Source: a virus
Length of the DNA stretch: 32,702 nt
Reading direction: 5' to 3' (one strand)
Virus genome (UHGV): UHGV-1394528
In this document: positions 2,699 through 28,441 of the stretch, in pieces
Position numbering within the stretch: position 1 is the first letter of the stretch
How the letters are laid out: each line of letters begins with the position of its first letter
Program-made: the position numbers and the translations under genes
The notes under the pieces: model-generated
The model's input: only the letters and a program-made list of their open reading frames with translations
Database searches by the model: none
What the model was told of the DNA's origin: nothing

Positions 2699-3175
2699 TT
2701 ATTTAAGTACATTAACAGATGCATAAGCATGCATCTTTGCTTTAGCTTTCAGGTAGGCATCTCGCGCTGCGTGTTCGCAGTCAAAGTGCCCGAGGTGTGT
2801 TGTCTTACCATTTAGCTGTATGTAGGCCCGCCACTTGTTAGCTCGGGAATCCCAACAATAGCCTTTCCACACAGAGTTCTGAGCGTTACCTGATTTGTCA
2901 ACTAGGCGCAGGTTCTCAATTCTATTGTCTGCTTTATCCAGATTAATGTGGTCCACCATCAACCCTTGGGGTATATCCCCGTGATGCATGAACCAAACAA
3001 GCCGGTGTGCATACTCTCTCACCCGTCCCGCTGCCCCGCGGTCCCAGGTCACGCGGCGGTATCCCCAGTTATTCTGGTAGGTATCACCGAAACGACCTGT
3101 GGCCTTGTTAATCAAGCGCCCGTCTTCTGTGTAGGTGTAGCGATTAGCTAGTTCTTGCAAGAGATTAATCTCCAT
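2699..3175 (-). CDS. HNH homing endonuclease with AP2-like DNA-binding domain
   Basis: Motif AHRLVW...VDHINLDKADNRIENLRLV (HNH_3 type) followed by an AP2-like WRAYIQLNGKTTHLGHF segment; inserted between scaffold and capsid genes. Confidence 0.8.
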   Translation of the reverse strand: MEINLLQELANRYTYTEDGRLINKATGRFGDTYQNNWGYRRVTWDRGAAGRVREYAHRLVWFMHHGDIPQGLMVDHINLDKADNRIENLRLVDKSGNAQNSVWKGYCWDSRANKWRAYIQLNGKTTHLGHFDCEHAARDAYLKAKAKMHAYASVNVLK

Positions 3176-3187
3176 GATTGGTAAGTA

Positions 3188-4030
3188 TTAGAGACCTACG
3201 CGCTTACCGGCTTCACGGCGTGCGAGCAAATCGTTATAACGTTGACTGAACTGTGGGGATGCCAAGCTACGGTTGCCCGCTTCCTGACGGAGTTTGGTAT
3301 ACTCTGCACGGAAGTCCGCAGCAGATAGTGCATTGTTGCTAGCTACGCCTCGTACCATTGGGTTCTGTGTCTTGATAAGACCCATATCCCGGCAGAAGCC
3401 CGCCACCAACTCGGCGGCCTGCTTAAGCTCGCCTGCGTTAGCGAGTACACGAGCTGCGTTACGCAGAGGTTCCGGAGCCTTGGAATTAAACAGCTGCGCT
3501 GCTACCTCCCAGTTCTCCTTCCCGCCTACAATATCGTAAGCTTCCTGTACTGCTTTGGTGGCTTGGCCAACCTGGTCTTCCAGGTACGCCTTGGCCAGCA
3601 GCTCTGCATAAGCAGCGTGCTCGCCGAAACGTTCCTTAATGAAGGCCGTATCGATTAGGTTAGGGTCCTGGTACTCCAGGGCCTTACCAAGTGCCCGCAC
3701 CATATCAGAGTCAGTTAACCCAGAGACTTTCTGCAACATAGCTACACCGGCGTCAATCGTCGGGTTGCCAGTCTTAGCCAGCTCCTGGGGCTGCTCTTTA
3801 GCGCTATCGCCACCCTTATCCAGGGCCGCTTTTAGGGCTTCGATATCCAGAGGAATCTTAGCAGGGTCAGGGGAATCTTTGCCCTGTTGCTGCTGGGTAG
3901 GTGTCTGTGCATCCTGCACGCCTTGATTGTTCGGGGCGCTAAGGGGAGCACCTAGGCCCGGAATCTTAGGACCACCTTGGTTCTCTACCTGTGTAGTTTC
4001 TACGTTTTGACCGTTTTCTACGTTATCCAT
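3188..4030 (-). CDS. scaffolding protein (T7 gp9-like)
   Basis: 280 aa, acidic and Q/A-rich, low complexity, located between portal and capsid genes. Confidence 0.65.
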   Translation of the reverse strand: MDNVENGQNVETTQVENQGGPKIPGLGAPLSAPNNQGVQDAQTPTQQQQGKDSPDPAKIPLDIEALKAALDKGGDSAKEQPQELAKTGNPTIDAGVAMLQKVSGLTDSDMVRALGKALEYQDPNLIDTAFIKERFGEHAAYAELLAKAYLEDQVGQATKAVQEAYDIVGGKENWEVAAQLFNSKAPEPLRNAARVLANAGELKQAAELVAGFCRDMGLIKTQNPMVRGVASNNALSAADFRAEYTKLRQEAGNRSLASPQFSQRYNDLLARREAGKRVGL

Positions 4031-4044
4031 CTATGCCTCTGTTG

Positions 4045-5640
4045 TTAACTTGGTAATAAGCCCAGCTGCTTACCTGCTACTGTCGGGTCCGCTGCTGTCA
4101 AGCCCTGGAGTTGGTCCTGTGCTGCACCTGCGGATACATCGGCAGACGCATCTTGAACCTGTTGCTTCTGCTGCAGCTGCTCTTCGGTGTACATGAACGG
4201 CTCGCTGACGATACCATAGGCGTCGAAGTACCAGTCTACACACGCATCCTTGTTGAAGCGCGGAGTAATCTGCTCAAGCACCGGGATAGCCAGCTGCATG
4301 GACTGTGCCGCCTCTAACAGCTTGTCCGCTGCCGCGGCTTTAGCCAGCGCAGAGGTACCTACTGTAACGTTGATGCTCACCACGCCTTCGCTGAGGTACA
4401 ACTTAAAGCGAGGGTACACCAGTGCAGTGTACAGGTACGCCAGCTTACGCAGCCAGGTGTCGCTCAGGATACTGAACCCACCACCCATAGCGGCTTCCGC
4501 CTCTTTGGCGTTCTGGCGAATCTCATAAGCCGTGACACGCTCACCCTGCCGGGAGTTGCCGGTGTACATAAACGCACGAGACAGTTTCTGTTCGAGCATC
4601 TGGATGTTGCTGGCAATCCACTGAATCTTCTGGGCAGAGCCGCCCTCGTAAGCAGTGACAGGAGACTTAGTGTTTCCGTTGGAACCACCGCCGCCCACCT
4701 GCACGGCCTCCCCGGTCTCCGCCGTAGAGAACTCGTCCACATCCAGGCCAGAACTAGAATCTACTAGTGGAATCAGCCGAGAGGCTTCGACCTCGTAGTT
4801 AGTCAGTGCTTCCGACAGTACCGATAATCGGGCAAAGTCCCCAGCGTAGTCCTCTACCAAGCCGCGCCCGTAGTGCTCGCCACTAACAAGGTTCCACACC
4901 AGCACGTTGTAGGGGAGCTCCAGCTCCGGATAGGTGCTGCTGTCCCCGATACGGTGTCCATCGGCTTCTTGATACACCTCGTAGCTTACTACCTCTACGC
5001 CTTCCTCTGTCAGCTTAACTTTGCGACAAGCGGCAGTGTAGATATCAACGTCGCCGTATGGGTCTTTGTCACGGTAGAAGGTGTTCTGGAAATCCTCTGG
5101 CAGGTCCTGGACGCTTGTGCGCTCTCTGATAATGAGTCGCAGGACGTTCCCGCTGCCATCCCTTCGAACGGTAAAGTTACGAACTGAGTAGACGATGGAT
5201 TTACCTGTCCGCTCATCAATATACTCCAACGCGTTACCTGTAACCAGCAGCAGCTTCACAGCTTGCAACTTCGCAGCATAACCGTCTTTCTCAAATACTT
5301 TCTGTGACGCTGTGTTCTCAACCTCAGCCAGCTTAGATTCTGCCGTAGCTGCACTGCCCAGCGAACTAATGAACTCGTCCAGGTCCGAACTCTTGGAGAA
5401 CCGGAAGAAGCTAGTGCCCTGAGGGAACAGTGCCCCTACAATCTTAGTGGCTGCAGTGTTGACCAGCTGCGCGCCGGTGCTCTGGTAGTCACGCTCTAGC
5501 GGTCTGCGTCTACCGTCCAGGGAATCGTCCCGGGTAAAGATAGTGCTGAGCGTCCACTGCGCGAACTTCTCGGAGGCATCCAATACACCTGCGTCCTGGT
5601 CCTTCTTAAAGAGTTCTGCTAATGTTGCTTTTTGTTCCAA
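4045..5640 (-). CDS. portal / head-tail connector protein (T7 gp8-like)
   Basis: 531 aa; segments KLQAVKLLLVTGNALEYI and GERVTAYEIRQNAKEAEAAMGGGFSILSDTW match conserved T7 gp8 blocks; apparent TTG start 9 nt after upstream stop. Confidence 0.85.
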   Translation of the reverse strand: MEQKATLAELFKKDQDAGVLDASEKFAQWTLSTIFTRDDSLDGRRRPLERDYQSTGAQLVNTAATKIVGALFPQGTSFFRFSKSSDLDEFISSLGSAATAESKLAEVENTASQKVFEKDGYAAKLQAVKLLLVTGNALEYIDERTGKSIVYSVRNFTVRRDGSGNVLRLIIRERTSVQDLPEDFQNTFYRDKDPYGDVDIYTAACRKVKLTEEGVEVVSYEVYQEADGHRIGDSSTYPELELPYNVLVWNLVSGEHYGRGLVEDYAGDFARLSVLSEALTNYEVEASRLIPLVDSSSGLDVDEFSTAETGEAVQVGGGGSNGNTKSPVTAYEGGSAQKIQWIASNIQMLEQKLSRAFMYTGNSRQGERVTAYEIRQNAKEAEAAMGGGFSILSDTWLRKLAYLYTALVYPRFKLYLSEGVVSINVTVGTSALAKAAAADKLLEAAQSMQLAIPVLEQITPRFNKDACVDWYFDAYGIVSEPFMYTEEQLQQKQQVQDASADVSAGAAQDQLQGLTAADPTVAGKQLGLLPS

Positions 5641-6378: not shown

Positions 6379-8847
6379 TTAGCAGAAGAAGAACGGGGAT
6401 TCTAGCACTTGCCGGATGTCCAAAGTGCCCACTTCCGGCATGTCCAGGTCCGTCAAGTCTGCCCCGGCTGCTGCTGCCGCGCGAGTAATGTAGCCAAGCA
6501 GGTCATTCTCTTCATACAGGCGCACAAACTGCTCACGGATGTGCCTATGCATAGCGTCAACGTCAGCTGCGTGAGTAGCCAGCGAGTCGTGAATAGGCAC
6601 AATGTCCAACCCCTCCGCAGCACAGAGCACCATCATCAAGTGCGTACTGTCCAGGCTATGCACAAAGTTCGGGGCAATCCCGGAGGCTGCCTTGCGCTTG
6701 TTGCAAGTTTTGAAGTCCCGGTTGTGTACCAGTACCGCTGACAGGTTCATGCAGTCAATACGTACGCGCACTTCTTCACGCTGCGTGTAGCGGTTCATTA
6801 CGAGCCCACCCAGCGGCGTATACCACTGCAGATGCTGGCTTGCCGGTACACGCCTAGCGAGGTTCTGCAAGTACCCCATAACTGCGGCTGCGGCTGGGTT
6901 TGCCTCCTCGATAGCAGTGCGCATACGCGGAGCCAGGTAGCATGACAAGTTCCACAGACTGTTAGTCTCAGTACCCTCGTACCCCTCAGCGCAAGCGCCT
7001 TCGAAGATGTAGTCGCTGCAGCTGCGCACAGTGGCGCTGTAGAAGTAGGTCATACTAGGGCGCTTGGTCATGCTGCGGGTGATTTCGTTCTCTCTCCAGT
7101 ACGTGCTCTGGATAACGAAATCCTCCTTGTCCAGGTCCAGTATCACCTTCTCGTCCGTACGGCGCTTCACGTCCATGTACAGGTCCGCTTTCTTATCATT
7201 ACCCTCCCAGTACAGGTTCGTCAAGCGTCCGCCCACAGGGTCTCTCAGGAGCGCTGAGAGATGCTGTCCACCTGAGTTTGTAGCGTCCATAGCAACTGGG
7301 ATTCGGCTAATATGCTCTTCTGGGCATCCAGAACGAACCGCATTAACCAAGTCGATAGCGGCGGCCAGCAGGCACCAGGGGCTATCCGCAGAGGAAAAAG
7401 CAGGGGCATCAAGAGGAGAATCCGCGAGCCTCTCAATCTCTGCATAGTTCGCATCAACCCAAGCTGCACGGTCTTCGAATAGGGTTTTGTCATAACCAAA
7501 GCAAGTGGCGACGTGCACTTTAAGCCAGAAAAGTCCGCGCTCTCCCAGAGGCTTGCCACGTCCGAATTCAAGAAGGGCTTTCTGCAAATCAGAACCTTGG
7601 GGATGCAGCGAGGACTTGAAGTACAGGCGGTAGCGCCAGTCCACACAAGTCGGGAAGTACAGGGCTTTCTCATCTTTGAATTCCTCCGCCATTTCCAGCG
7701 TGGTCAACAGGCTGCGTAGTTGTGACACACGCTTACGGTCTGCGCTGTACCATAGGGACATGCGCGTCTTCCACTCACCGAAGCGGCCCAGTTCTTCTTC
7801 GGTGTAGTTCTCTTTTGGTACTCCATCCAAGTACCACTCCGGTTTAGGCTCTGGTACTGAGCGGGGCATGCCCACCCCAATACCCAGGGCCCGTGCTTCT
7901 TGCACCAGTTCCAGTATGCGCTTATTAATACGGTATGGGGTTTCCTGTGCCTTATTAAGCGCCTTCTTGATGCCGTCCGCGGACTTAAATGCTTCCGCTA
8001 CTTCACGGAGTCGCGCGCGGTCGATGTGCGAGTTGTGATAGGTCCCGCGATTGTCGATGGGGGTAAGGTACCCGCCATCCCACATAGTGGTGTGCTGTAC
8101 CGGTGGCACCAGCATAGGCGGCTTCATGGTTACGGTATCAGCGGACTCTACCAGTTTCTGGAAGGCCTCCATAACATCGTCAGCCGGGTAGAGCATGCTC
8201 AGGTTCCCACTACAGTTCTTCCATTGGAACAGGCCAGTCTCAAACACCGCGGCACATAGCAGCCGACCTACTGAGATATTCTGGGAGTTGGTCCATGGCT
8301 CGTGCCCATAGTGCACGTTCTCAGCACTGGCCCGCAGCGTACGCAGGATGTGCGTGGGAGACTTGGTCTTACGCTCCGTAAGGTACTCGTACACACGGTC
8401 CATGTACGCCGGAGCCACGTTGCGTAACTGCAGGGCCAGCAGTTCCGATTGTACGTTCCGGCCCAGCGCGGACATTACCGCCTGTGCAGTCTGGCGGCGG
8501 CTAGCGGACTCGCCAGGAGCTACGCTAAATGCCTCAAACATTGTGCATAGGCTCAGGGTGGTCAGGACATCCAAGGGGACTAAGCGCAGGAACCGGCGGT
8601 ACTTACCGCCAATGCCCGGGGCTTTTACATTTCGCATCTCATCGATAGCGGCGGCGGCCACCTCATATGCCGAGGTGAGCATACGCTGCGTCATCGGCAG
8701 GTTCATAATCCCACCGTTCTGCAATGCGTCCGTAATCAGCTTACGTGCCCGCTCGATTCCGCGAATCTTATAGGTCTCTTCAAGCTCCAGCTGGCGTTTC
8801 ACCAGTGCTTCCTCTGGTACTACAACCGTATTCAGGGCGCTAATCAT
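6379..8847 (-). CDS. single-subunit DNA-directed RNA polymerase (T7 RNAP family)
   Basis: 822 aa; motif A-like DATNSGGQHLSALLRD (T7: DGSCSGIQHFSAMLRD) and motif C-like IHDSLATH (T7: HDSFGT). Confidence 0.9.
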   Translation of the reverse strand: MISALNTVVVPEEALVKRQLELEETYKIRGIERARKLITDALQNGGIMNLPMTQRMLTSAYEVAAAAIDEMRNVKAPGIGGKYRRFLRLVPLDVLTTLSLCTMFEAFSVAPGESASRRQTAQAVMSALGRNVQSELLALQLRNVAPAYMDRVYEYLTERKTKSPTHILRTLRASAENVHYGHEPWTNSQNISVGRLLCAAVFETGLFQWKNCSGNLSMLYPADDVMEAFQKLVESADTVTMKPPMLVPPVQHTTMWDGGYLTPIDNRGTYHNSHIDRARLREVAEAFKSADGIKKALNKAQETPYRINKRILELVQEARALGIGVGMPRSVPEPKPEWYLDGVPKENYTEEELGRFGEWKTRMSLWYSADRKRVSQLRSLLTTLEMAEEFKDEKALYFPTCVDWRYRLYFKSSLHPQGSDLQKALLEFGRGKPLGERGLFWLKVHVATCFGYDKTLFEDRAAWVDANYAEIERLADSPLDAPAFSSADSPWCLLAAAIDLVNAVRSGCPEEHISRIPVAMDATNSGGQHLSALLRDPVGGRLTNLYWEGNDKKADLYMDVKRRTDEKVILDLDKEDFVIQSTYWRENEITRSMTKRPSMTYFYSATVRSCSDYIFEGACAEGYEGTETNSLWNLSCYLAPRMRTAIEEANPAAAAVMGYLQNLARRVPASQHLQWYTPLGGLVMNRYTQREEVRVRIDCMNLSAVLVHNRDFKTCNKRKAASGIAPNFVHSLDSTHLMMVLCAAEGLDIVPIHDSLATHAADVDAMHRHIREQFVRLYEENDLLGYITRAAAAAGADLTDLDMPEVGTLDIRQVLESPFFFC

Positions 8848-9444: not shown

Positions 9445-9863
9445 TTAATAGTCTCCCGTGCTTTACGTCGTGCCCGGGCCTTGCGGGCCTTGAGCTTCTG
9501 TGCCTGCGCCAATTCTTCCGGCGTCTTGTGCGTATAGTATAGCATATCCGTAGGTTCGCGGTCTAAGTAATCGGCGACCCTACGTAGAGATTCAGCAATA
9601 GCCCCAGAAGATTGCATGCTACCAACAATCCAGCGCCCAGCGGCAGATGCCACTTTGCCTTCCCCTCCATTGCACGAGCGATGAAGAGCACCCCGAATAC
9701 GCCCAGTAATATGATCGTGGTCAACGACAACAGAATCACCAGTTACCCCCTTGATTGTGAAGTCCAAAGGTTTGCCACAAAGGGGGCAGATACCTCCCTG
9801 GTCTTTGGCAAGCTTAATTGCCACGGAGCGAATCTGTGCCCGTGTAATCTTCCGCAGACTCAT
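9441..9863 (-). CDS. endonuclease VII-like Holliday junction resolvase
   Basis: GICPLCGKPL...VVDHDHITGRIRGALHRSCNGGEGK matches the T4 endo VII zinc/HNH-like core. Start placed at Met8 of the track ORF (ATGA overlap with upstream small ORF); alternative start at 9884. Confidence 0.75.
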   Translation of the reverse strand: MSLRKITRAQIRSVAIKLAKDQGGICPLCGKPLDFTIKGVTGDSVVVDHDHITGRIRGALHRSCNGGEGKVASAAGRWIVGSMQSSGAIAESLRRVADYLDREPTDMLYYTHKTPEELAQAQKLKARKARARRKARETIK

Positions 9864-10039
9864 ACGTATATGAACCCCCACCATAAATGCGCGGAGCGTA
9901 TGTGAGCTACGGTCAGTGCCGGAGACATCACCTCTCCGGTGTTAGTGCACCTAACCTGAACCCCTTGCTGTGGGGCGGGTTCCAATATATACACGTCTTG
10001 TGTATCCTCAAAAGTATATTCTCTACCCATTTCTAACAT
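9860..10039 (-). CDS. hypothetical small protein, 59 aa (not in ORF track)
   Basis: Read by eye: MLEMGREYTFEDTQDVYILEPAPQQGVQVRCTNTGEVMSPALTVAHIRSAHLWWGFIYV; fills an otherwise ~150-bp gap; overlaps both neighbours at start and stop. Confidence 0.35.
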   Translation of the reverse strand: MLEMGREYTFEDTQDVYILEPAPQQGVQVRCTNTGEVMSPALTVAHIRSAHLWWGFIYV

Positions 10040-10233: not shown

Positions 10234-11158
10234 TGTCTGGGTGCTCCTGTATCCACTGTATATGCTGTTTATGGTACTCGTGCAGCGAATGCACCCAGTC
10301 ACGCAGACTGGGAGTAGTCAACAGTGACATCAGATACAGGTACGCTGAATCTGACGGGGAGCGCCGCAGGAACAGGCATTCTGCCTCTGCGAGTACATCT
10401 TGGTTGTTTCGAGCGTAAGCCGCTACAACGAATTCTGCGGCGTCCTGCTCTGAGGTAATAGGGTAGATAGCATCAAAGGCCGTTCGCTTCCCACAGAGCT
10501 TCCCATCAAGCAATGTGATGCCTTTGACGTTATCTGCGTCATCTCCTGCTAGCATCTGCCACCAGAAGAACTTAGTGCCATGCGCTCGTACCGGCATAGC
10601 CTGGGTATCATCCCACTTAATCCATCCGAAGGGGTTATCCAAGGCAGGCCATACGGTTCCGGTTGGGATATCGAACCGGGCCATAGGGCTGAGCCAGGAG
10701 TCCTTGTCCTGAGACATCAGGATTCCACGGTCCCCGAAGCTGTACGAATCCATTATGAACAGGTCATCCGCCTCGAAGTAGTCACTGCTTACTACCTGAA
10801 TACCCTGCTCAGAATACTGGTCTGGATTTTCAATCAGGTGCCGCTTCAATGGCGCCTTGAGCGGTAGCTCCTGTCGATTAGCGCGCTGCCCCTGATAGGG
10901 CTTAGCCGTAGGCAGGTGCCAGCGCAAACACTTGGCGCATCCCGTAGGCGTCAGATACGCAACTGCTTCTGAGCAGCCGACCAGGAACATGTCCTCAAGC
11001 ACCAGCTGATAGAAGCGGCGTATTGCGGTGTCCAAACGTTTCACTGTAGCGGCAGATTTATAAACTGTGAAATCCGCATCGTACAGCAGAATCTTCCCAG
11101 AGTTCTGCGGAGCTAACTGCTCCCCGAGCTGGGACAAGTCAACCCCGTTGATAATCAT
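10190..11158 (-). CDS. 5'-3' exonuclease (FEN / T7 gp6-like)
   Basis: 322 aa with acidic clusters typical of FEN-family nucleases (LLYDADF, FEADDLF, SQDKD, GDDADNVKGI). Confidence 0.75.
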   Translation of the reverse strand: MIINGVDLSQLGEQLAPQNSGKILLYDADFTVYKSAATVKRLDTAIRRFYQLVLEDMFLVGCSEAVAYLTPTGCAKCLRWHLPTAKPYQGQRANRQELPLKAPLKRHLIENPDQYSEQGIQVVSSDYFEADDLFIMDSYSFGDRGILMSQDKDSWLSPMARFDIPTGTVWPALDNPFGWIKWDDTQAMPVRAHGTKFFWWQMLAGDDADNVKGITLLDGKLCGKRTAFDAIYPITSEQDAAEFVVAAYARNNQDVLAEAECLFLRRSPSDSAYLYLMSLLTTPSLRDWVHSLHEYHKQHIQWIQEHPDNGEDVCEGNEPAGD

Positions 11159-11319
11159 CAGACCCCCGTAACCTTCTTGGTCAACTTACGCGCCCAGGAT
11201 TCCCAGGCGGTCAGCGCCTTGCTGTTCTCTACCTTCTCAAACACCCAGCACAAGATGGCTACCGGTACTAGAGGGGCCACTAGCATAAAATAAAATACTC
11301 TGGCAAGGGTATTTCGCAT
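11158..11319 (-). CDS. hypothetical small membrane protein, 53 aa (not in ORF track)
   Basis: Read by eye: MRNTLARVFYFMLVAPLVPVAILCWVFEKVENSKALTAWESWARKLTKKVTGV; hydrophobic core; stop overlaps exonuclease ATG (TGATG); SD GGAG upstream. Confidence 0.4.
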   Translation of the reverse strand: MRNTLARVFYFMLVAPLVPVAILCWVFEKVENSKALTAWESWARKLTKKVTGV

Positions 11320-11321
11320 TA

Positions 11322-11525
11322 TTAAATCTCCAGTCTAGCTACTGATTTAGTAGCTGATTTCACCTGCTTACGGGTAGGTTTAGCGGCCCAGCGCACCACG
11401 TACATGGTGCAAGGGTCGTCCTCCCGGATAAAGGTTACGTACCAGCGGTTGCAGGCATGCTCAGCATAAGGTGCCATAAAGCTGTGCCTAGGTGCGTGCA
11501 CCTCTACACGTACGCCCATGCTCAA
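11322..11525 (-). CDS. hypothetical protein, 67 aa
   Basis: Track ORF in a tightly packed same-strand series. Confidence 0.4.
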   Translation of the reverse strand: MSMGVRVEVHAPRHSFMAPYAEHACNRWYVTFIREDDPCTMYVVRWAAKPTRKQVKSATKSVARLEI

Positions 11526-12479: not shown

Positions 12480-13268
12480 TTAGGCTTGATGTGCGGCGGG
12501 TGCTGCTGGCGCCACAGGGGCTGCAGGGGCCACTGGTGCAGCCGGGGCTGCGGGTGCCTGCATAGCCGCCGGACTAGGAACCGAGCCAGCGTTCAGCAGA
12601 ATATCCAGAGCACTGCCAGGGAAGTCTACAGCCTTGTACATATCCTCCTGAATCCAGTTCTTGCTCTTACCATCGTCGAAGGTGCCTTCGATGTGCAGGC
12701 TATCCCAGGTCTCTTTGGTTGGGTTGTTCCACAGGAACAGCTTAATCTCAGAGGCATCCAGGGCAGGCATCTTGATAGGCTCGCCAGTGTTCGGGTCGAA
12801 TTTCGGAATCGGGCGGATACCGGACAGGTCCGCGATGTTGGACTTCTTGCCCGCGGCGCTGGTGTGCTCATCAATCGGGAAGGTGAAGGCCTGGCCCAGA
12901 CGCTGTGCTGCATGCTTAATGCTATTGTCGTAGTTGAGCTTGTCGAAGAACTTCTTGAAGCCTGCGCGCTCAAAGTTACTGATAGCCATCGGGAACGGGC
13001 GGATACGCTTCACTTCGCCGTTAGGACCGAACACTACAATGCCGATGCGTACGTTAGCTACTGCGGGCTTACCGGTCGGCTTGCCACCCTTAGTCGGCAG
13101 GCGCTTACCGATTTCTACGTACTCGGTGAAGTAGCCGTAGTATTCACCCTTCGGCAGCAGCACGTCCTCATACGCACCGCCCTGTGCGGTTTCAGTCATA
13201 TCAACATCCTGCGTTTCAATAGCAGCCGCTACCAGGGAGTTCAGGGTGTCCAGTGCATTCATCGTCAT
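12480..13268 (-). CDS. hypothetical protein with Pro/Ala-rich C-terminal tail (possible DNA-binding/replication accessory protein by position only)
   Basis: 262 aa; C-terminus PSPAAMQAPAAPAAPVAPAAPVAPAAPAAHQA; no recognisable catalytic motif. Confidence 0.6.
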   Translation of the reverse strand: MTMNALDTLNSLVAAAIETQDVDMTETAQGGAYEDVLLPKGEYYGYFTEYVEIGKRLPTKGGKPTGKPAVANVRIGIVVFGPNGEVKRIRPFPMAISNFERAGFKKFFDKLNYDNSIKHAAQRLGQAFTFPIDEHTSAAGKKSNIADLSGIRPIPKFDPNTGEPIKMPALDASEIKLFLWNNPTKETWDSLHIEGTFDDGKSKNWIQEDMYKAVDFPGSALDILLNAGSVPSPAAMQAPAAPAAPVAPAAPVAPAAPAAHQA

Positions 13269-13319
13269 ATAATTACTTCCTCGTTTAGTTTGAATGATAT
13301 TTACGTGCAGATGCAGGGC

Positions 13320-13538: not shown

Positions 13539-14481
13539 GCAGCATCGGAATTAACTGCGGGCAACCCTCGGTGATTACCATCACACCCAGGATTGGTTTC
13601 TTGCGGGTGAGTCTGCCGTAAGCAAAGGCCATGCTCTTACGGTCAATCAGACACCCAGCATACGCACCAAAGTACAAAGCTGTTGAGCTAGCTGCATATT
13701 GCACCTCAAAGCGACCATGTTCGTGACCAAGGACAAGGCTGGTTCTTTCGTGGCTAGCGTTGAGCATGAAGTCACCCGACACTTGATGCTGGAATCTAAC
13801 CGGGCCAAGTGGGGTATTGAGTACCCACGCGTCAGCCCAAGACCACGCCGGGGCACCATGTTCAGGGAAAAGTATATCTCGGTACTTCTTGATGAATTGC
13901 ACTGGTAGCCCGTGAGCTTTCGCCCTGCGGTAAACCAGACTGCCGTGATTGGAATCGCAAACCAATAGGTTCGGGAACAGTTCATGTAGCTCCTCCAGTA
14001 CGAGCTTAGCTTTCTCCAGCTCCACCCCGGCGCTATCCAGGTTCGGGTTACTTTCGTGGAATGATATAGCGTGGCCGTCCGTCTCGTCGCCTACCTGTAC
14101 AACCATGTCCGGACAGTAGGCGTCTCGCACAGATTCTAAGAAGGCCATAGCATCTACGTGCGTATAGGGGGCATGCAAATCCCCAACTACGAGAATACGG
14201 TGGCACACTTCCGGCACGAAGGTTTTGCCGATGTCATCAGTGGGACTGGGCTGTATGAGCTTTAGTGCCTCCTTCATGTGGGATATTGCCTTACCCTTGC
14301 TCCCAGCGTGGTCTAGGAATATGCTGCGCCAGTACTTCACCATCTGTCGATACACCACTGGCTCGTCCAGTCCCGCCAGCTTATTATAGGCGGCAGCAGC
14401 ATCCACGTTAGAGCTGTGCTTGCTCAAGATATCTATGTGTTGCTCTTTGGTGAATAGCTTTATTGTGTTTAACTTAGGCAT
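13501..14481 (-). CDS. calcineurin-like metallophosphoesterase
   Basis: Motifs in canonical order: GDLHAPY (DxH), VGDETDGH (GDxxD), CDSNHG (GNH-like), LGHEH. Confidence 0.7.
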   Translation of the reverse strand: MPKLNTIKLFTKEQHIDILSKHSSNVDAAAAYNKLAGLDEPVVYRQMVKYWRSIFLDHAGSKGKAISHMKEALKLIQPSPTDDIGKTFVPEVCHRILVVGDLHAPYTHVDAMAFLESVRDAYCPDMVVQVGDETDGHAISFHESNPNLDSAGVELEKAKLVLEELHELFPNLLVCDSNHGSLVYRRAKAHGLPVQFIKKYRDILFPEHGAPAWSWADAWVLNTPLGPVRFQHQVSGDFMLNASHERTSLVLGHEHGRFEVQYAASSTALYFGAYAGCLIDRKSMAFAYGRLTRKKPILGVMVITEGCPQLIPMLLDDDGRWVGRTK

Positions 14482-14908
14482 TCCAGCTCCTGTTACTTAT
14501 TACGTCACTAATTACATGTACACCTACACCGTACTTATTAGCAAAGTGTTGCCGCATACCTTTCTTGTATGGGATATAGTTATCCCTGATATCCTGCACA
14601 GCATCCCAAGTTAACTGCGCTTTTGGGTTCCTATCCCCACGCACATCTGGGTTCCTTCCGCGCTCTGCACGGTCCCGCATATTATCCATATGCGTTCCCA
14701 ATACTAAGTGCTTAGGGTTAATGCACCTGGGGTTATCGCAGGTATGTCTAACAGACAGGCCAGCCAGCGCCCTTATATCCAGCCCGTTATGCTCAGCATA
14801 CACCACCCGATGCAGCAGCTCCAATCGCCTGGTCGGCTTATACCATGCCCGGCGGTATCCGTTCTTGTTAAGGCATTTGTTATACCCGTGGTCAATACAC
14901 ATCGACAT
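14474..14908 (-). CDS. HNH homing endonuclease
   Basis: VRHTCDNPRCINPKHLVLGTHMDNMRDRAERGR motif; paralog of the HNH at 19520-19957; SD AAGAGGG upstream. Confidence 0.8.
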   Translation of the reverse strand: MSMCIDHGYNKCLNKNGYRRAWYKPTRRLELLHRVVYAEHNGLDIRALAGLSVRHTCDNPRCINPKHLVLGTHMDNMRDRAERGRNPDVRGDRNPKAQLTWDAVQDIRDNYIPYKKGMRQHFANKYGVGVHVISDVISNRSWNA

Positions 14909-18093: not shown

Positions 18094-18188
18094 AATTCCC
18101 CGGTAACGCGGTGTCGCACCACGTAACTACCGCGTATAAGTCCTGTGTAATCCACTTTTTGGATAACCCCTGTATAGTCTACTTGCAT
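17967..18188 (-). CDS. hypothetical protein, about 73 aa
   Basis: Track ORF 17967..18242 trimmed to Met19 (ATG 18186-18188) with strong SD AGGAGGG; palindromic motif C lies just upstream. Confidence 0.4.
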   Translation of the reverse strand: MQVDYTGVIQKVDYTGLIRGSYVVRHRVTGEFCTVELGARYNQREWDIVGPISLLGDLLVCLNRQTSTTKTTR

Positions 18189-18238
18189 AAACCCTCCTGT
18201 GTACCTACATAGCGCCCTCGTAGAAGGCGCTAGGGAAG

Positions 18239-19519
18239 TCACTGGTTAATCTGGCCTTCGTCAAATCTACAACGTCCAGGCTCGAATCCCACCTCGAATT
18301 GCAGGAGCGACTCTTTACCAGACAGCGCCATCTTGTTCTTAGGAGTACTGATACCTCGGACGTTTTGCATATGCGGCTGCTCGTTTCTGTCCAAGCACCC
18401 CATCATAATCGCCAAGTCCAAGGCACCCTGTACACCAATCTTGCTCTGCTTCATAGCAGTGAGCGGCGGGAACAGCATGTTGTAACCTTCGAGTGAAAGC
18501 TGCATAGTCCCTACGATAGCGCAGTCGTTCTCGCACCCAAGGATGCGCAGCTCCTGCCATTTCGCCTCGAGATTCTGGTGCTCACTCTCCATAGTGCCGC
18601 CACGGATATTCGCCACCATGTCGATGATGATTACCGCGGGGCGCATCTCCTCCATGAGTGTGGATATCTGCGCCATCGTCAAGGAGTGCGCAGCCTTTAC
18701 ACGAATCCGGTCAGCCCTGCCTACTTTCTTGAGGTAGGCTGGCACGAACTCTTGCTTACTGTGCCTGTCCTTAATCTCCGCCAGAGTCCAATGCAGCGCC
18801 GCTTGATATACCCTCGGCACTGTACGCGTCGCCGGACCCTCGTTAACCAGCCAGAGAATCGGGCGGTCCCCGTATACTTCCGGCTGCTGCTGCATCTGCT
18901 CAGCAAAGTCCACAGCAATAGCAGCAAGCAGGCTAGTTTTACCAGAGTCCACAGGAGCAGCCACTGCGATGCAGTCCCCGCCGCGTAGACCTCGGATGCT
19001 GCTAGCGAGTTGCTCGAACACGCCCAGTTTAAGACCACCGCTCTCGTCAGTCGCGGCAAGTATTTCGTCAACACTTCCGCTCTCCCATTCAAGCAGCGAC
19101 TCGTGCACTGCAGCACCGTCTCCGTACTTGCGCTGCAGGTGCTTCATTTCCAGTAGGTAATCAATCTCCTCGCCGTCTTGGTAGCGCTGCGTCAGCGCCG
19201 CCACCTCTCCGCTGTAGGCCAGCTCATTCAGGGTCTGGACAATCCCCACCACAGAATCCTGCGGTACGGCTTGTACTCCCCGCATAAGCTCGTCCATGAT
19301 TACCCGCTCTTCCCGGGATAGGTGTCCCGCCCGGAGATTGAGCATGCTCTGCATTGCATCCCACTGAACCTCCTGGTGCTCCGGGTACGTGTTCCAGTAC
19401 AACCCCACCCAGTCTAGTAGGTTCGACGTATCCGGCGCGAGCATGCTCTTAGGTATCTGCTCTCGCAAGCGAGTCCACACTTTCTGCGTGCACATAGCAC
19501 GAACAACTATTAGGTCCAA
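18239..19519 (-). CDS. DnaB-like replicative DNA helicase (T7 gp4 helicase-domain-like)
   Basis: 426 aa; Walker A GDCIAVAAPVDSGKTSLLA, Walker B-like AVIIIDMV; no primase domain. Confidence 0.8.
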   Translation of the reverse strand: MDLIVVRAMCTQKVWTRLREQIPKSMLAPDTSNLLDWVGLYWNTYPEHQEVQWDAMQSMLNLRAGHLSREERVIMDELMRGVQAVPQDSVVGIVQTLNELAYSGEVAALTQRYQDGEEIDYLLEMKHLQRKYGDGAAVHESLLEWESGSVDEILAATDESGGLKLGVFEQLASSIRGLRGGDCIAVAAPVDSGKTSLLAAIAVDFAEQMQQQPEVYGDRPILWLVNEGPATRTVPRVYQAALHWTLAEIKDRHSKQEFVPAYLKKVGRADRIRVKAAHSLTMAQISTLMEEMRPAVIIIDMVANIRGGTMESEHQNLEAKWQELRILGCENDCAIVGTMQLSLEGYNMLFPPLTAMKQSKIGVQGALDLAIMMGCLDRNEQPHMQNVRGISTPKNKMALSGKESLLQFEVGFEPGRCRFDEGQINQ

Positions 19520-19957
19520 TTATAGCCTCCAAGTTTTAGCTTTCAACACACCGTGCACTGCTGACACACTCACGCCAAGGCTGGCAGCTATAGCCGGTAT
19601 ACCGTGCTCCCTGCCGTACCGTCTGTAGTTCTCCCTGATATAGCCCACCTGTTGCTCCGTTAGCTTGGAGTACCCATTATGCTCTCCTTTAGAAACCCCG
19701 CGTTTAGCCCTACCCCTGGCAATACAGTCATGGACGTTATCCTTGACCGTACCTAATTCTAAATGCTCGGGATTAATGCATCTCGGGTTGTCACACTTAT
19801 GGCGCACAACTAGCCCCACTATGCTCTCCGGAGATATATCGTTCGCCGAGCAATACACCTTTCTATGCAGGGGTATCTTCCGCCCTTTGAACGTGGTATT
19901 TCCGTAACCCTTTGGTCCGCCTTTCTGTTTGTGCTCTTTACACGCGCCTAATACCAT
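19520..19957 (-). CDS. HNH homing endonuclease
   Basis: VVRHKCDNPRCINPEHLELGTVKDNVHDCIARGR motif plus C-terminal HTH-like segment; sits between primase and helicase genes, overlapping primase 3' end by 20 nt. Confidence 0.8.
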   Translation of the reverse strand: MVLGACKEHKQKGGPKGYGNTTFKGRKIPLHRKVYCSANDISPESIVGLVVRHKCDNPRCINPEHLELGTVKDNVHDCIARGRAKRGVSKGEHNGYSKLTEQQVGYIRENYRRYGREHGIPAIAASLGVSVSAVHGVLKAKTWRL

Positions 19958-20729
19958 CTAATAACTCCTGTATTGTTGCCTCTTTTGGGTCCCCGTCGTA
20001 GTAGATTTCGTGGCACGACATAAAGGGACGTAGCGCGCGCCGTATCATGGCCGCGCCGGAGTGTCCCGCTTGGTCATTATCCAGGGACAGTATCACTGTC
20101 GGTTTGTTCTGTATCAGCCACGCCCTTAACTGCACGGGCAAGCGAGTACCCAGCATAGCTATAGCCTGCACGTTCATTGCAGAGTAGTTCGTAATCGCGT
20201 GCTGATATTTGATCGCTGATAGATAGTCCTCGGTGAGCACGACCTTTAGAGGTGCGGCCGCAGCTACATCCGGCGCTACGGCAGGTGCCGCGGCAGCGAA
20301 CGGCATTGGCTGGCCGTACATTACCCACTTCGGTTGCTGTCGGGCATGCACTGCACGGCCCAGAGCAGCGCTTCCGACACGGAATATTATCCGCTGTTTC
20401 TCTTTGCTCCATTCTGCATCCTCCACCATTTCAGGCATGATTCCCTTTGTGGTCAGGAATCCGTAAAGAAAACTCTGCGTTTCCGCAGGCGCTTGGCTAA
20501 TGCAAATTGCATCTGCAGGTGCAGAGGGCTGCACCCTCGGCTCTTCCTGTAACTGTATGCGCTGGTACTGCTTGTGCTCCTTGCCCACCTGTTTGCAGCG
20601 GTGGCAATAATATTCCCAGGCATCCGGGTTATTGTAGAGCACCCCGGCGGCGTCCCTGCCGCAGCACCGAAAGCGCGCCCTCTGCCCAACGGCCAGGCGC
20701 TTGCACGCTCTAAGCCAGGGCTGGTCCAT
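19938..20729 (-). CDS. DNA primase (zinc-ribbon + TOPRIM)
   Basis: Cys4 zinc ribbon (FRCCGRD...YCHRCK) followed by TOPRIM-like VVLTEDYLSA ... SLDNDQAG. Confidence 0.7.
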   Translation of the reverse strand: MDQPWLRACKRLAVGQRARFRCCGRDAAGVLYNNPDAWEYYCHRCKQVGKEHKQYQRIQLQEEPRVQPSAPADAICISQAPAETQSFLYGFLTTKGIMPEMVEDAEWSKEKQRIIFRVGSAALGRAVHARQQPKWVMYGQPMPFAAAAPAVAPDVAAAAPLKVVLTEDYLSAIKYQHAITNYSAMNVQAIAMLGTRLPVQLRAWLIQNKPTVILSLDNDQAGHSGAAMIRRALRPFMSCHEIYYDGDPKEATIQELLDGIRRV

Positions 20730-23952: not shown

Positions 23953-24297
23953 TCAGCGTGCGTACCACGCGGAGAGTTGTTGCTGCTTATAATAGGCGCG
24001 GACTGCGGCTCTAAATTGCTTAAAAGCTCCGCGGTATCCATTCCGCCGTAGTGCTGCAACCACATCGAATGCAATGTGCTCTTGCAGCTTCCGCGCGGCA
24101 GACTCAGTGTACTCTCGATAGGTTGTGAGAACAGTGCCAATATCCTCTTTTCTAACTCGGAGTAATCGACGCTCAACTGGCACGATTTGCTTGAGTTCAT
24201 TAGGAACCTCTTTGAATGTTTCCCAAGTGCAACCGCACTTGCCCTGCGTTTCCAGCAGACGCCAGCACAGCAGCGCTGTTTCGTCTACTGTGAGCAT
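23953..24297 (-). CDS. hypothetical protein, 114 aa
   Basis: Track ORF, charged K/E/R-rich composition. Confidence 0.45.
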   Translation of the reverse strand: MLTVDETALLCWRLLETQGKCGCTWETFKEVPNELKQIVPVERRLLRVRKEDIGTVLTTYREYTESAARKLQEHIAFDVVAALRRNGYRGAFKQFRAAVRAYYKQQQLSAWYAR

Positions 24298-24503
24298 GCG
24301 CTATCCTTGAATACCACGTTGCGGGCCACAAGGGTGCTACAACTTAGCATTACCACCCCGCCAACTGTGTGACTGGACGGCAACCACAGTCTAGTCTCCT
24401 CTGCATAGAATTCTGCGAGGGCGTGCAGTGGACTAAATAGAGGTACCCGGTAAAGAAACCCATTAGGGCGCTTATATACGTCATAAATGTCCTGCTTGCT
24501 CAT
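24285..24503 (-). CDS. hypothetical protein, 72 aa
   Basis: Track ORF; ATG overlaps upstream stop (ATGA). Confidence 0.45.
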   Translation of the reverse strand: MSKQDIYDVYKRPNGFLYRVPLFSPLHALAEFYAEETRLWLPSSHTVGGVVMLSCSTLVARNVVFKDSACSQ

Positions 24504-24679
24504 ACTACACCCCGCACATTAAACCGGAAGCAGTAGCCGCGCAGGGTCATACCCAGGCGCTTTGCTTGTTTCTCATAGTGCTGGCGCAGCGCTGCCTTCG
24601 CGTTGTACTCCCGCGCCAGCCCGTCGATTGTTGGTTGCTGCTTACGCATCAGCAGCGTTTCAGGATTCTTTCCGTGCAT
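24500..24679 (-). CDS. hypothetical small basic protein, 59 aa (not in ORF track)
   Basis: Read by eye: MHGKNPETLLMRKQQPTIDGLAREYNAKAALRQHYEKQAKRLGMTLRGYCFRFNVRGVV; SD GAGGTG with 5-nt spacer; stop overlaps next ATG. Confidence 0.4.
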   Translation of the reverse strand: MHGKNPETLLMRKQQPTIDGLAREYNAKAALRQHYEKQAKRLGMTLRGYCFRFNVRGVV

Positions 24680-26519: not shown

Positions 26520-26559
26520 GCGTTTATTTCTTACTGCCTTACTGCTTACTTCGGGATTC

Positions 26560-26588
26560 AATCTAGCTTATGTTCTTCGCGGTGTCAA
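26560..26588 (-). promoter_or_regulatory. candidate sigma70 early promoter (upstream of tandem pair)
   Basis: Minus strand: -35 TTGACA (26588-26583), 17-bp spacer, -10 TAGATT (26565-26560). Confidence 0.4.
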
Positions 26589-26740: not shown

Positions 26741-27157
26741 TCACCGGGAGCAAAAAGAGTAAGCAGACCCCCAAAGGTCTGCGTGCAGTAAACTATTGTA
26801 GTCCCCATAAGTCACGTCGAACTCTCGCCAGTTAGTATCGTACTCAGGACTAGCCAATAACTCATCCTTTGTGAAGCATCTCCCTTCCTGAATCTGTGCT
26901 AAGTGTATGGCCCGGTGAGTGTCAGCGCTAACCAGTATCAGGTTATTGAAGTCACAGTTAAGGCGGTTACTGTCACAGTGATGTACGTGATAGCCAGAAC
27001 CGTAGCTAGTGATTCCCAGAGCATCCATAACCACGGCCCTATGCAGCGCCACAGTCTTATAGTCTCTCTTACCTCGCTTATTCACATACTCAGGCCCAGC
27101 ACCATTAATCACTGGATAACCTTCCTTATCAACCACAATCTTAAATGTTCTAGCCAC
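26741..27157 (-). CDS. HNH endonuclease
   Basis: HVHHCDSNRLNCDFNNLILVSADTHRAIH (H-N-H core); GTG start with SD AAGGAG. Confidence 0.7.
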   Translation of the reverse strand: MARTFKIVVDKEGYPVINGAGPEYVNKRGKRDYKTVALHRAVVMDALGITSYGSGYHVHHCDSNRLNCDFNNLILVSADTHRAIHLAQIQEGRCFTKDELLASPEYDTNWREFDVTYGDYNSLLHADLWGSAYSFCSR

Positions 27158-27399
27158 AACAATATCTCCTTACATAGTGATTAGTAGCGTAACCATAGCG
27201 ACGATATCCCGGAGGGATAGGAGCGGAGGTTACAAGATTCTAGGTAATGCTTCCCTCCCTACGGTCAGTCATACAGGGCATTACTAGGGGATACTAGTGA
27301 CTACTAGTGAGTAGTAGTAAGTAGTGTGTATATAGTGCCCTAAAACCCTCCTACTCCTGTAACATCATTTCATGACAGCTTTCGAATGAAAGTAAGAGC

Positions 27400-27830
27400 A
27401 AAGGGATAGCAAAGAGATAGCGCCGGGATAGTGTTGGGTGAGGATGTGCGCCCTAGTGGGGAGCGCGCAGCGTAGCATATAATCGGCACAATGTAAAGCA
27501 CTAGGGATAGCCAGTGGATAGCCTAGTGCATACTAGGGATAGCACCGTGACGCACTACAGCGCACTAGGCAGGCCCACTATGGCCCCACAATGCAGGCAC
27601 TAGGCGGGCCCACTATGGACGCGCAAAATAAGCAAGGCAGAGCGCACCCCTACGGCCCACAGGGAGCGCACAGGGATAGCCCCTAGTGCCCCGTAGAGCG
27701 CACAGGAGCCACTCAGTGCCACGCACAGGCCAAGCCGTGGGGCAGCACTAGCGATAGCCCCAGCGCAGCGCAGGGAGCCACTGAGGCCCTCTGAGGCTTC
27801 CGCTATAGCCACGGTCTTAGCTGCCGTGGC
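27400..27830. repeat. repeat-dense CTAG-rich non-coding region (iteron-like GGGATAGC copies, 24-bp tandem repeat, short palindromes)
   Basis: At least 7 copies of (G)GGATAGC-like octamers (27403, 27414, 27425, 27504, 27516, 27536, 27673, 27751); direct repeat gcactaggcRggcccactatggMc at 27562-27585 and 27597-27620; GAGCGCAC x3. Confidence 0.6.
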
Positions 27831-27979
27831 GCTCCACACCTCAGAGAGCGCCCTAGGGCCGTCTAGACGTCTAGGCACCCACCCCACCCCTCCTTTTATG
27901 CGCTAGGCACCCCCTATGGGGGCAATTGGCGTCGTTGAGGGTGAGGGAGGCTCAAGGGCGAGTATAATAATTTTTGGTT

Positions 27980-28441
27980 TCAGATATACACCTGCCCCGG
28001 GGTGAAGGCCTTGTGTTGCTCTTGACGTTTCTCTAGTACCCACTTGCAGATAACTTCGTAGGAGCTGTGCTTCTTCATGTAACGCTTACCGTCCTTCCAG
28101 AACTCCCCGCGCCAGCAGGTGCCAGTGTAGTATACACCCCTAGGATGTTCCCGCTTAGACCTGCGTGCGTTACAGTTGTTTTCGCTAACCGTAGCTAAGC
28201 GCAGGTTCTCTAATCTGTTGTCACCGGGGTTTTGGTTGATGTGGTCCACCACATATCCGTCTGGAATAGGCCCGTTGTGTAGTTCCCAGATGAGGCGGTG
28301 TGCCTGTATCTTTCTACCAGATACCTGTACCACCCAGTAGCCACGAGTGTTGCGGGTACCCGCTGGAGCACCGGCGCGCCTACCCTTGAGCCACACCAAG
28401 CAGCTAGGGGATGTTGTGTCATATTTGATGTTCATAGACAT
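27980..28441 (-). CDS. HNH homing endonuclease (HNH_3/AP2-like)
   Basis: AHRLIWELHNGPIPDGYVVDHINQNPGDNRLENLRLA; paralog of the HNH at 2699-3175. Confidence 0.8.
   Translation of the reverse strand: MSMNIKYDTTSPSCLVWLKGRRAGAPAGTRNTRGYWVVQVSGRKIQAHRLIWELHNGPIPDGYVVDHINQNPGDNRLENLRLATVSENNCNARRSKREHPRGVYYTGTCWRGEFWKDGKRYMKKHSSYEVICKWVLEKRQEQHKAFTPGQVYI

Follow-up and report, generated by a model that had tools for sequence, protein, structure and literature searches.

The systems closest to the genes discussed here include both intron-encoded and free-standing endonucleases. The archetype of the HNH_3 group is I-HmuI of the Bacillus phage SPO1, a nicking enzyme encoded within a group I intron, whose residues H75 and N96 are said, from work of Shen and colleagues in 2004, to act as general base and metal ligand. 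I-PpoI represents the His-Cys box enzymes. The Seg and Mob proteins of T4-like phages are mostly GIY-YIG enzymes or belong to a different HNH type. Together with the ICP1 IPA-HNH and T5orf172 proteins, they are products of homing endonuclease genes (HEGs), which have essential genes as neighbours and are located where exchanged segments end (Barth et al., 2023, PMC10448857). Closer to the present phage, variable HEGs have been reported in Drulisvirus (PMC7013548), and five HNH HEGs have been published for the KP34-related Pectobacterium phage CB5 (PMC6115819).

We analysed a stretch of 32,702 nucleotides (the window) that derives from a KP34-like Klebsiella podophage (Drulisvirus) and whose assembly is permuted. 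It carries five HNH genes, HNH-A to HNH-E (Table 1). The catalytic His and Asn positions of I-HmuI are also found in HNH-A and HNH-B, and the profile of HNH-C and HNH-D is collinear with I-HmuI over both the nuclease domain and the HTH region at the C-terminus (E=0.019); unlike I-HmuI, the window genes are free-standing and intron-free. With I-PpoI, HNH-C and HNH-D have in common the loop H-x-C-x-N-x2-C-x-N-P-x-H-L, a match of only about 35 residues, and we take their Cys6, Cys55, Cys60 and His65 to correspond to its first zinc site (C41, C100, C105 and H110), whereas I-PpoI, a eukaryotic enzyme encoded in an intron, is dimeric and has no HTH tail. The T4-like and ICP1 HEGs resemble the window genes in their intergenic placement beside essential genes, sporadic occurrence, apparent flank co-conversion and position at the edges of exchanged segments (PMC10448857), but belong to another phage lineage, the window phage being a 44-kb T7-like podophage. 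HNH-A and HNH-B may also recall the HNH+AP2 architecture of IPA-HNH (PMC10448857), with an AP2 part that is here sub-threshold.

We consider it probable (roughly 0.85) that each of the five ORFs is a free-standing HEG belonging to the His-Me finger / HNH_3 superfamily and an optional selfish element in Drulisvirus. The observation is real, ordinary and already known: these look like ordinary selfish mobile genes.

Table 1. Position of the five HNH genes, their neighbours and linked features in the window
Feature	Coordinates	Strand	Remarks
Major capsid protein gene	1667..2686	-	Downstream flank of HNH-A; 97% identity to XP4 capsid protein
HNH-A	2699..3175	-	HNH_3 endonuclease, weak AP2-like C-terminus; Pfam HNH_3, phrog_99
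Scaffolding protein gene	3188..4030	-	Upstream flank of HNH-A; 98% identity to XP4 scaffold protein
Carrier-specific tract, phosphoesterase 5' end	14070..14473	-	Linked to HNH-C; ~400 nt downstream
HNH-C	14474..14908	-	His-Me finger endonuclease, I-PpoI-like Cys/His zinc loop, HTH-like C-terminus
DNA helicase gene	18239..19519	-	Downstream flank of HNH-D; 98.6% identity to XP4 helicase
HNH-D	19520..19957	-	HNH-C family; within last codons of primase gene
DNA primase gene	19938..20729	-	Upstream flank of HNH-D; 88% identity to XP4 primase
Carrier-specific tract, primase 3' end	19958..20250	-	Linked to HNH-D; ~300 nt
Sigma-70-type early promoter TTGACA-17-TAGATT	26560..26588	-	Downstream of HNH-E; 10/12 matches (promoter scan)
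HNH-E	26741..27157	-	Canonical H-N-H variant (HVHHCD...N...H); HNH_3, phrog_7545
Direct terminal repeat, collapsed in the assembly; marks the physical end of the genome	27640..27946, limits approximate	.	Between HNH-B and HNH-E region
HNH-B	27980..28441	-	HNH_3 endonuclease; last gene before right terminal repeat, downstream of tailspike
Tailspike gene	28537..30492	-	Upstream flank of HNH-B; 96.6% identity to XP4 tailspike

Family assignment and catalytic residues

The five ORFs lie exactly where a first-pass annotation had placed them, all on the minus strand, and a phmmer search through all ORFs of the window, taken stop to stop with a 70-aa minimum, recovered these five and no sixth HNH gene. 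Each exceeds the Pfam HNH_3 (PF13392) gathering score of 24.8 bits (HNH-A 69.3, HNH-B 78.1, HNH-C 37.3, HNH-D 33.2, HNH-E 31.1). The three families originally proposed survive as PHROG subfamilies annotated HNH endonuclease, namely phrog_99 for HNH-A and HNH-B (E ~1e-46, full length), phrog_6254/59 for HNH-C and HNH-D, and phrog_7545 for HNH-E, but collapse into a single family in Pfam. A/B and C/D are pairs from the same families without being recent duplicates: HNH-A and HNH-B are 57% identical only within a 46-aa HNH core, and HNH-C and HNH-D 42% over 117 aa.

Alignment showed the catalytic residues to be intact in all five proteins, ending the possibility that they had been lost. The His equivalent to I-HmuI H75 is invariant, and the distal metal-ligand position (N96 equivalent) is Asn in HNH-A to HNH-D and His in HNH-E, whose HVHHCD...N...H pattern is a canonical H-N-H variant. 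HNH-A matches the I-HmuI structure (PDB 1U3E) directly (E=2e-4). Its suggested AP2-like region reaches 21.8 bits, under the cutoff of 33.3, and HNH-B, for which the same was suggested, gives no AP2 match. The zf-His_Me_endon family (PF05551, cutoff 27) is matched by HNH-C at 28.5 bits, while HNH-D stays below the cutoff at 20.1 bits. Across 13 diverse members of the C/D family, C6, H31, H53, C55, N57, C60, N62, H65 and N74 are invariant, and in a PDB profile search the family matches I-PpoI (E=0.018), I-HmuI and 2LVS. The C-terminal HTH attributed to HNH-C and HNH-D is marginal, being based on the 2LVS match (E=2.4e-4) and on the collinearity with I-HmuI mentioned above.

The genes are free-standing as described, intergenic or overlapping their neighbours by a few nucleotides, and no intron, intein or Rfam family match was found in the window. 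A Shine-Dalgarno sequence precedes every one of the genes except HNH-A, which has instead an alternative TTG start after GGAG; this codon, at 3160 and six codons in, may be its true start, as in the XP4 annotation. Purifying selection acts on the HNH ORFs tested, with dN/dS values of 0.03-0.10 for HNH-A, 0.11 for HNH-B, 0.05 for HNH-C and 0.10-0.18 for HNH-D, a total range of 0.03-0.18.

Insertion sites

Comparison of the insertion sites with those of HNH-free relatives had been proposed, and in KpV475 all five are empty. Against this genome the elements appear as discrete insertions of ~450-490 nt (HNH-A, HNH-B, HNH-D) or as replacements of variable spacer DNA (HNH-C, HNH-E), and the genes flanking HNH insertions are as long as in HNH-free relatives. 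The claim that all five separate conserved core genes applies to HNH-A, HNH-C and HNH-D, but not to HNH-B and HNH-E, which flank the terminal repeat.

HNH-A is inserted into the 25 nt that separate the stop codon of the scaffold gene from the RBS of the capsid gene (486 nt in the window vs 10 nt in KpV475). HNH-D (445 nt vs 16 nt) overlaps the primase gene with its start by 20 nt, and its 3' end preserves the native helicase RBS (GGAGG) and TTG start. At both sites the junctions are the same in all carriers compared. HNH-C (558 nt vs 408 nt) has hyp73, which is downstream of DNAP, on one side and the phosphoesterase gene on the other, with an 8-nt overlap at the start of the latter; KpV475 has here a small ORF after an annotated promoter.

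HNH-B is a clean insertion (456 nt vs 0 nt). The repeat next to it aligns to the KpV475 repeat_region at 1-243 and 41959-42201, and terminal-repeat features are annotated under the window matches in KP34, KP-Rio/2015 and KpV71. HNH-E (524 nt vs 197 nt) is situated in non-coding DNA of the left end, ~500 nt in from the terminus and upstream of early promoters, the one in Table 1 being the aligned counterpart of the promoters annotated at 969-1066 in KpV475. It has a GTG start with an AAGGAG Shine-Dalgarno, and the promoter scan found no sigma-70-like promoter upstream of it. Most relatives end HNH-E at codon 128, which reads TGG in the window, so that this stop-to-Trp change makes the ORF 10 codons longer.

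Distribution among relatives

Each element is found in ~5-11% of ~250 related GenBank genomes (12-27 records each). HNH-A is carried by 20 of 303 matching GenBank records and 14 of 64 IMG/VR contigs, HNH-D by 12/248 and 7/55, respectively; at least 80% of the HNH-B ORF is present in 27 GenBank records, and HNH-C and HNH-E have 17 and 16 GenBank carriers, the latter annotated HNH endonuclease. HNH content varies between close relatives and is not identical at these sites in all of them. Furthermore, the elements assort independently, other contigs carrying A, AD, AE, BD, DE or BCE; no sampled relative has all five, and the maximum is three of the five per other contig. Decayed copies also occur: HNH-A is frameshifted in the relatives L111 and L114, and HNH-D of L030 has an internal deletion of ~236 nt.

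The load itself, initially considered high for the genome size, is not exceptional. For genomes of this phage group it is normal to have several HNH genes, and such genes are annotated there already. Homologs recur at 15 or more intergenic sites across the group, and the 39 related contigs of which 28 kb or more were sampled have 0-6 HNH genes (median ~3). One related contig of 27.7 kb has seven, XP4 has seven Pfam-validated HNH_3 genes, and CB5 has five (PMC6115819). The window genes are 83-96% identical in nucleotide sequence to records annotated HNH endonuclease or endonuclease at the same sites, and up to 100% identical to unannotated RCIP records. HNH endonucleases that correspond to these genes in identity and site are annotated in XP4, KpV71, NTUH-K2044-K1-1, VKV295, phage 6995 and CB5, with counterparts of HNH-B under this name in KpV71, NTUH-K2044-K1-1 and VLCpiA1o. 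Only the combination of all five distinguishes the window from the sampled relatives.

Flanking tracts and mosaicism

Two of the elements are linked to carrier-specific DNA. The tract at the primase 3' end is 0.97-0.99 identical to the window in HNH-D carriers and 0.41-0.87 in non-carriers; in the helicase flank, and beyond the upstream end of the tract, carriers equal non-carriers, making the tract one-sided. The linked primase allele differs at ~30% of its last 90 residues, including those around the DNDxAG motif. The tract at the phosphoesterase 5' end, also one-sided, is 0.91-0.94 identical in HNH-C carriers (n=2, IMG/VR) and 0.30-0.79 in non-carriers. This flank is unmatched by megablast in most GenBank relatives, and the phosphoesterase is 72% identical to that of XP4, compared with ~90% or higher for most other conserved genes. 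The HNH-D tract may be the footprint of co-conversion or of an immunity allele, and the HNH-C tract likewise appears co-conversion-like. Site A shows no carrier-specific flanking tract at population level. In the locus sample HNH-B, HNH-C and HNH-E had 2-4 carriers each.

The nearest backbone, contig 3300045988_001730, carries HNH-B, HNH-C and HNH-E and matches the greater part of the window at ~100% identity. Two divergent patches, ~1250-3600 and 15500-20250, contain HNH-A and HNH-D, respectively, each near one edge (n=2 for this association). Two others, 10750-11500 and 13000-13500, are HNH-free, showing that mosaicism does not require HEGs.

Proposed homing and alternative explanations

Repeated homing, as the first-pass annotation suggested, fits the sporadic distribution, independent assortment, tracts at HNH-D and HNH-C, decayed copies and low dN/dS. 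Each HNH gene would have been acquired independently, as a selfish element that the phage can do without. When a HEG-less relative infects the same cell, the enzyme would nick or cut the empty allele near the insertion site, and recombinational repair off the HEG-bearing genome would copy in the HEG and adjacent DNA. DNA binding would involve the AP2-like module in HNH-A and HNH-B, and the HTH-like C-terminus with the I-PpoI-type zinc loop in HNH-C and HNH-D. Cleavage activity, target sites and any inheritance advantage through marker exclusion are predicted for the five proteins.

Purifying selection on every ORF tested would also be expected of nucleases domesticated for inter-phage or phage–host conflict (degradation of competitor or host DNA, or anti-defence), and HEG-derived nucleases have been co-opted in phage–satellite and defence conflicts (PMC10448857, PMC13096335). 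This explanation is improbable, since sporadic presence (only 5-11% of relatives for each element), fixed sites with identical junctions, linked flanking tracts and decayed copies bear the mark of selfish turnover and not of a beneficial function that is being kept. There is common ground between the two readings, marker exclusion being a form of competition.

It is more doubtful still that the five-HNH set arose in assembly, as a chimeric contig of co-occurring Drulisvirus strains with fewer HNHs each. The assembly is permuted and the window alternates between ~100% identity to 3300045988_001730 and to 3300045988_005987, from one dataset, but none of the sampled contigs offers a near-identical donor for the HNH-A and HNH-D regions (best matches 96-97%), mosaicism is normal in this phage group, and natural genomes with 5-7 HNH genes are known (XP4, IMG/VR contig 3300045988_008898 and CB5; PMC6115819).

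Least credible is a role as packaging or terminus-generation accessories like the HNH–terminase partnership of HK97-like cos phages, for which HNH-B and HNH-E are candidates because both flank the terminal repeat (HNH-B directly before its right copy, HNH-E near the left end): both are missing from most relatives, including KpV475 with the same terminal repeats and terminase, none of the five adjoins the terminase genes (terL starts at ~32301, past the lysis cassette and tailspike), and all five are I-HmuI-like HNH_3 proteins. The gp74 protein of HK97 is a member of another HNH family, and T7-like phages whose genomes end in direct terminal repeats are not known to need an HNH protein for packaging. 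A gp74-like partner would be expected next to the terminase genes and in all relatives, whereas the five genes are not terminase-adjacent and are lacking in KpV475 and most relatives.

Implications

If the selfish HEG reading is extended so that HNH genes are agents of exchange and more than passengers, they might carry segments of essential genes, on the kb scale, from one Klebsiella therapy phage to another, a phage with five HEGs might out-inherit HEG-poor relatives in mixed infections or cocktails, and the HNH-D-linked primase tract might be a cleavage-immune allele. We hold this extension to be tentative and rather unlikely. Were it true, the essential genes moved would be those for primase, helicase and DNAP, scaffold and capsid, and phosphoesterase.

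Identity of the HNH proteins

The best-supported reading of the five HNH genes, as judged from sequence comparison, is that they would be independently acquired, dispensable, free-standing homing endonuclease genes (HEGs). ORFs were found exactly where the first-pass annotation had placed them, and all five products exceed the Pfam HNH_3 gathering score of 24.8 (69, 78, 37, 33 and 31 bits for HNH-A to HNH-E). A phmmer sweep of every stop-to-stop ORF in the window returned these five and no further ones. In PHROG, where all matches are annotated as HNH endonuclease, HNH-A and HNH-B correspond over their full length to phrog_99, HNH-C and HNH-D to phrog_6254/59, and HNH-E to phrog_7545; the three families proposed earlier are thus families by PHROG, but a single one by Pfam. 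Likewise, the pairs A/B and C/D, described as paralogs, share their families without being recent duplicates (57% identity across 46 aa for A/B, 42% across 117 aa for C/D), and the AP2-like label given to A and B finds a sub-threshold Pfam match in A and none in B.

Joint alignment shows an invariant catalytic His, with the distal metal-ligand position occupied by Asn in A-D and by His in E, and HNH-A is directly alignable to I-HmuI (PDB 1U3E). The C/D family, aligned from 13 members at related loci, has Cys6, His31, His53, Cys55, Asn57, Cys60, Asn62, His65 and Asn74 invariant. Searched against the PDB, its profile matches the zinc loop of I-PpoI (E=0.018), I-HmuI collinearly through the C-terminal HTH region (E=0.019), and 2LVS by the C-terminal module alone (E=2.4e-4); because of the last two matches, the C-terminal HTH assigned earlier to C and D is reasonable, if modestly supported.

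Gene order and insertion sites

Megablast against GenBank phages gave 328 matching records, 235 of them Klebsiella phages, headed by RCIP0106 (94.9% identity across 93% of the first 25 kb of the window), and the annotated relatives belong to Autographiviridae, Slopekvirinae, Drulisvirus (KP34-like). All substantial ORFs lie on the minus strand, and their order was read along that strand after mapping onto the annotated relative vB_Kp_XP4. From this gene order the physical genome end falls within the window, which is a permuted assembly crossing that end, with the direct terminal repeat collapsed. Beside the repeat, a GC-rich stretch (~27400-27650) holds many short 'CTATCCCTAGTG'/'TAGTGGGCC'-like repeats, and such stretches are typical of T7-like genome ends. 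A 95-aa ORF in the terminal-repeat region (27600-27887) is probably spurious.

Gene order along the minus strand, with lengths of the HNH intervals in the window and at the same sites in KpV475
Block	Feature	Position	Window (nt)	KpV475 (nt)	Change
1	terL (partial)				
1	lysis cassette				
1	tailspike	28537-30492			
1	HNH-B	27980-28441	456	0	clean insertion
2	terminal repeat (collapsed)	~27640-27946			
2	HNH-E	26741-27157	524	197	replacement
2	early genes				
2	656-aa protein				
2	peptidase				
3	primase	19938-20729			
3	HNH-D	19520-19957	445	16	clean insertion
3	helicase	18239-19519			
4	DNAP	15288-17699			
4	hyp73				
4	HNH-C	14474-14908	558	408	replacement
4	phosphoesterase	13501-14481			
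5	exonuclease				
5	endonuclease VII				
5	kinase				
5	RNAP	6379-8847			
5	portal				
6	scaffold	3188-4030			
6	HNH-A	2699-3175	486	10	clean insertion
6	capsid	1667-2686			
6	tail tube A				

Comparison with an HNH-free relative, as had been proposed, was made by end-to-end alignment with KpV475 (42.2 kb; zero HNHs by the same detector), and the window differs from the empty form at all five sites. HNH-A occupies the 25-nt spacer from the scaffold stop to the capsid RBS, which is kept. HNH-D enters within the final primase codons, changing the primase C-terminus from ...EILEALIGPNSC to ...ELLDGIRRV, and its 3' end retains the RBS and TTG start native to the helicase. At the third site KpV475 has a small ORF downstream of an annotated promoter; HNH-C takes the place of this ORF and shares 8 nt with the start of the phosphoesterase gene. 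HNH-B, which follows the last late gene, has the tailspike stop on one side and the right terminal repeat on the other, and HNH-E is placed in non-coding DNA of the left end, upstream of a sigma-70-type early promoter (26588-26560). The statement that all five adjoin core-gene boundaries therefore holds for A, C and D, which lie between core genes, but not for B and E, which flank the genome termini. A scan limited to sigma-70-type sites found no such promoter upstream of HNH-E, the only good site being the downstream one.

HNH-E ends in ...LLHADL* in most relatives, and the window and one related locus (L038) have TGG at the stop (window 26774-26776). This stop-to-Trp change adds 10 codons, and the longer ORF runs through a terminator-like hairpin (26763-26782) with a T-run after it; a tblastn re-check identified the shorter ORF as the usual form.

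Distribution and load among relatives

When each gene was queried against GenBank with 400-nt flanks, the same element was present at the same site in 20/303 records for A, 17/247 for C, 12/248 for D and 16/245 for E, and searches with the ORF alone gave 27 (B), 17 (C) and 16 (E) records. For many such homologs the annotation already reads 'HNH endonuclease'. Across ~80 related IMG/VR contigs the five elements assort independently, the combinations present being A alone, AD, AE, BD, DE and BCE, with at most three of the window's five together. At least 15 intergenic sites recurrently hold HNH-like ORFs in this phage group, and one site is often occupied by differing HNH families across relatives.

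The load had been considered high for a genome of this size. Among 39 sampled contigs of at least 28 kb, those with zero to six HNHs numbered 6, 5, 7, 8, 9, 3 and 1, respectively; one 27.7-kb contig has seven, as does XP4 in 44.3 kb (five annotated and two unannotated that pass Pfam), and five HNH HEGs have been published for the KP34 relative Pectobacterium phage CB5 (PMC6115819). Given these counts, five is upper-range for the lineage and not exceptional. The window covers only 32.7 kb of a ~44-kb genome, so five is also a minimum. The two unannotated HNH_3 endonucleases of XP4 (PP663283.1; 1554-2003 and 7952-8458) carry the label 'hypothetical protein' and score 39.9 and 55.8 bits.

Putative footprints of homing, and decayed copies

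Flanks were compared ungapped and then gapped. At site D, identity to the window over the final ~300 nt of primase is 97-99% in the seven other carriers and 41-87% in 48 non-carriers, while further upstream and over the whole helicase flank the two groups resemble the window equally; the primase allele common to the carriers differs at ~30% of the last 90 residues. Site C has a comparable linked tract of ~400 nt on the phosphoesterase side, a flank without megablast match in most GenBank relatives. The metallophosphoesterase itself is 72% identical to that of XP4 at the protein level, most other conserved genes being ~90% or higher, and its divergence peaks in the first ~400 nt adjoining HNH-C. 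No linked flanking tract was found in carriers at site A; the carrier backbones are further from the window than the non-carrier ones, a point in favour of horizontal spread.

The nearest backbone, contig 3300045988_001730, is ~100% identical over most of the window and holds B, C and E. Two divergent patches (~1250-3600 and 15500-20250) contain A and D, each near one edge, a placement that would fit with reports of HEGs at boundaries of exchange (PMC10448857), albeit with n=2. Two further, smaller patches (10750-11500 and 13000-13500; 89-96% identity) are HNH-free, and mosaicism is therefore not always HEG-associated.

Decayed copies are also present. One contig (IMGVR_UViG_3300045988_001223, 6558-7149) carries HNH-D with a ~236-nt internal deletion and retains the D-linked primase allele, and at the scaffold-capsid site of two others (L111 and L114) HNH-A is frameshifted near codon 53-64. 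Further disrupted copies were over-called by gapped blastn in divergent sequences, and tblastn left only these three. All HNH-E copies are intact. For A to D, dN/dS measured against the copies in the window runs from 0.03 to 0.18, a sign of constraint.

Introns, inteins and further HNH genes

An Rfam search of the window matched no family, and no intron or intein context was found for the HNHs. The DNAP gene is intact here; in several relatives an insert of 230-640 nt precisely after codon 590 splits it and changes the frame (11703-11911 in L044, 11724-12343 in L042, also in L041 and L049). Rfam identifies the L044 insert as a group I intron (RF00028, 70.6 bits) and scores that of L042 below the gathering score (40.4 bits); no HNH ORF was detected inside these inserts.

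A sixth HNH gene or remnant was rejected, as five segments (18015-18184, 17680-17853, 9852-10036 and the spacers 27158-27979 and 24285-24510) showed no resemblance to any HNH by blastx or blastn. The first three are 170-185 nt of extra sequence relative to KpV475, with small ORFs of 91, 62 and 59 aa that have no Pfam match; they occupy helicase-DNAP and exonuclease-endoVII sites, where other relatives have HNH genes.

Proposed homing and its alternatives

For homing, a putative HNH enzyme would cleave or nick the HEG-less allele, and repair from the HEG+ genome would follow. Together these steps would account for the fixed junctions, sporadic distribution, linked tracts and decayed copies. The D target would most likely lie in the last ~300 nt of primase, and that of C in the first ~400 nt of phosphoesterase. 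A role as domesticated conflict nucleases, a reading that overlaps with the proposed marker exclusion, is unlikely. That the set is an assembly chimera is unlikely, since sets of 5-7 HNHs occur in natural genomes and no sampled contig offers a near-identical source for the A and D regions. For B and E, a function in packaging or at the termini was rejected: both genes are missing from most of the relatives that share these ends, hence dispensable, and the terminase genes are not near either.

Relevance

Drulisvirus phages are leading therapy candidates against Klebsiella pneumoniae. The genes, sites and variability described here are already contained in public annotated Drulisvirus genomes, and the phenomenon is in the literature, a homing endonuclease having been reported as a difference between the Drulisvirus phages piVLC1 and piVLC2 (PMC7013548); the only novelty is the particular A+B+C+D+E combination. 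Conceptually the findings agree with what is established for free-standing phage HEGs, and practical relevance is modest. The D and C tracts offer concrete guesses for two putative cut regions (primase 3' and phosphoesterase 5'). HEG content explains much of the variation in size and gene content among near-identical isolates and, if the HEGs are active, recombination and marker inheritance would be biased in cocktails or during joint propagation of such phages.
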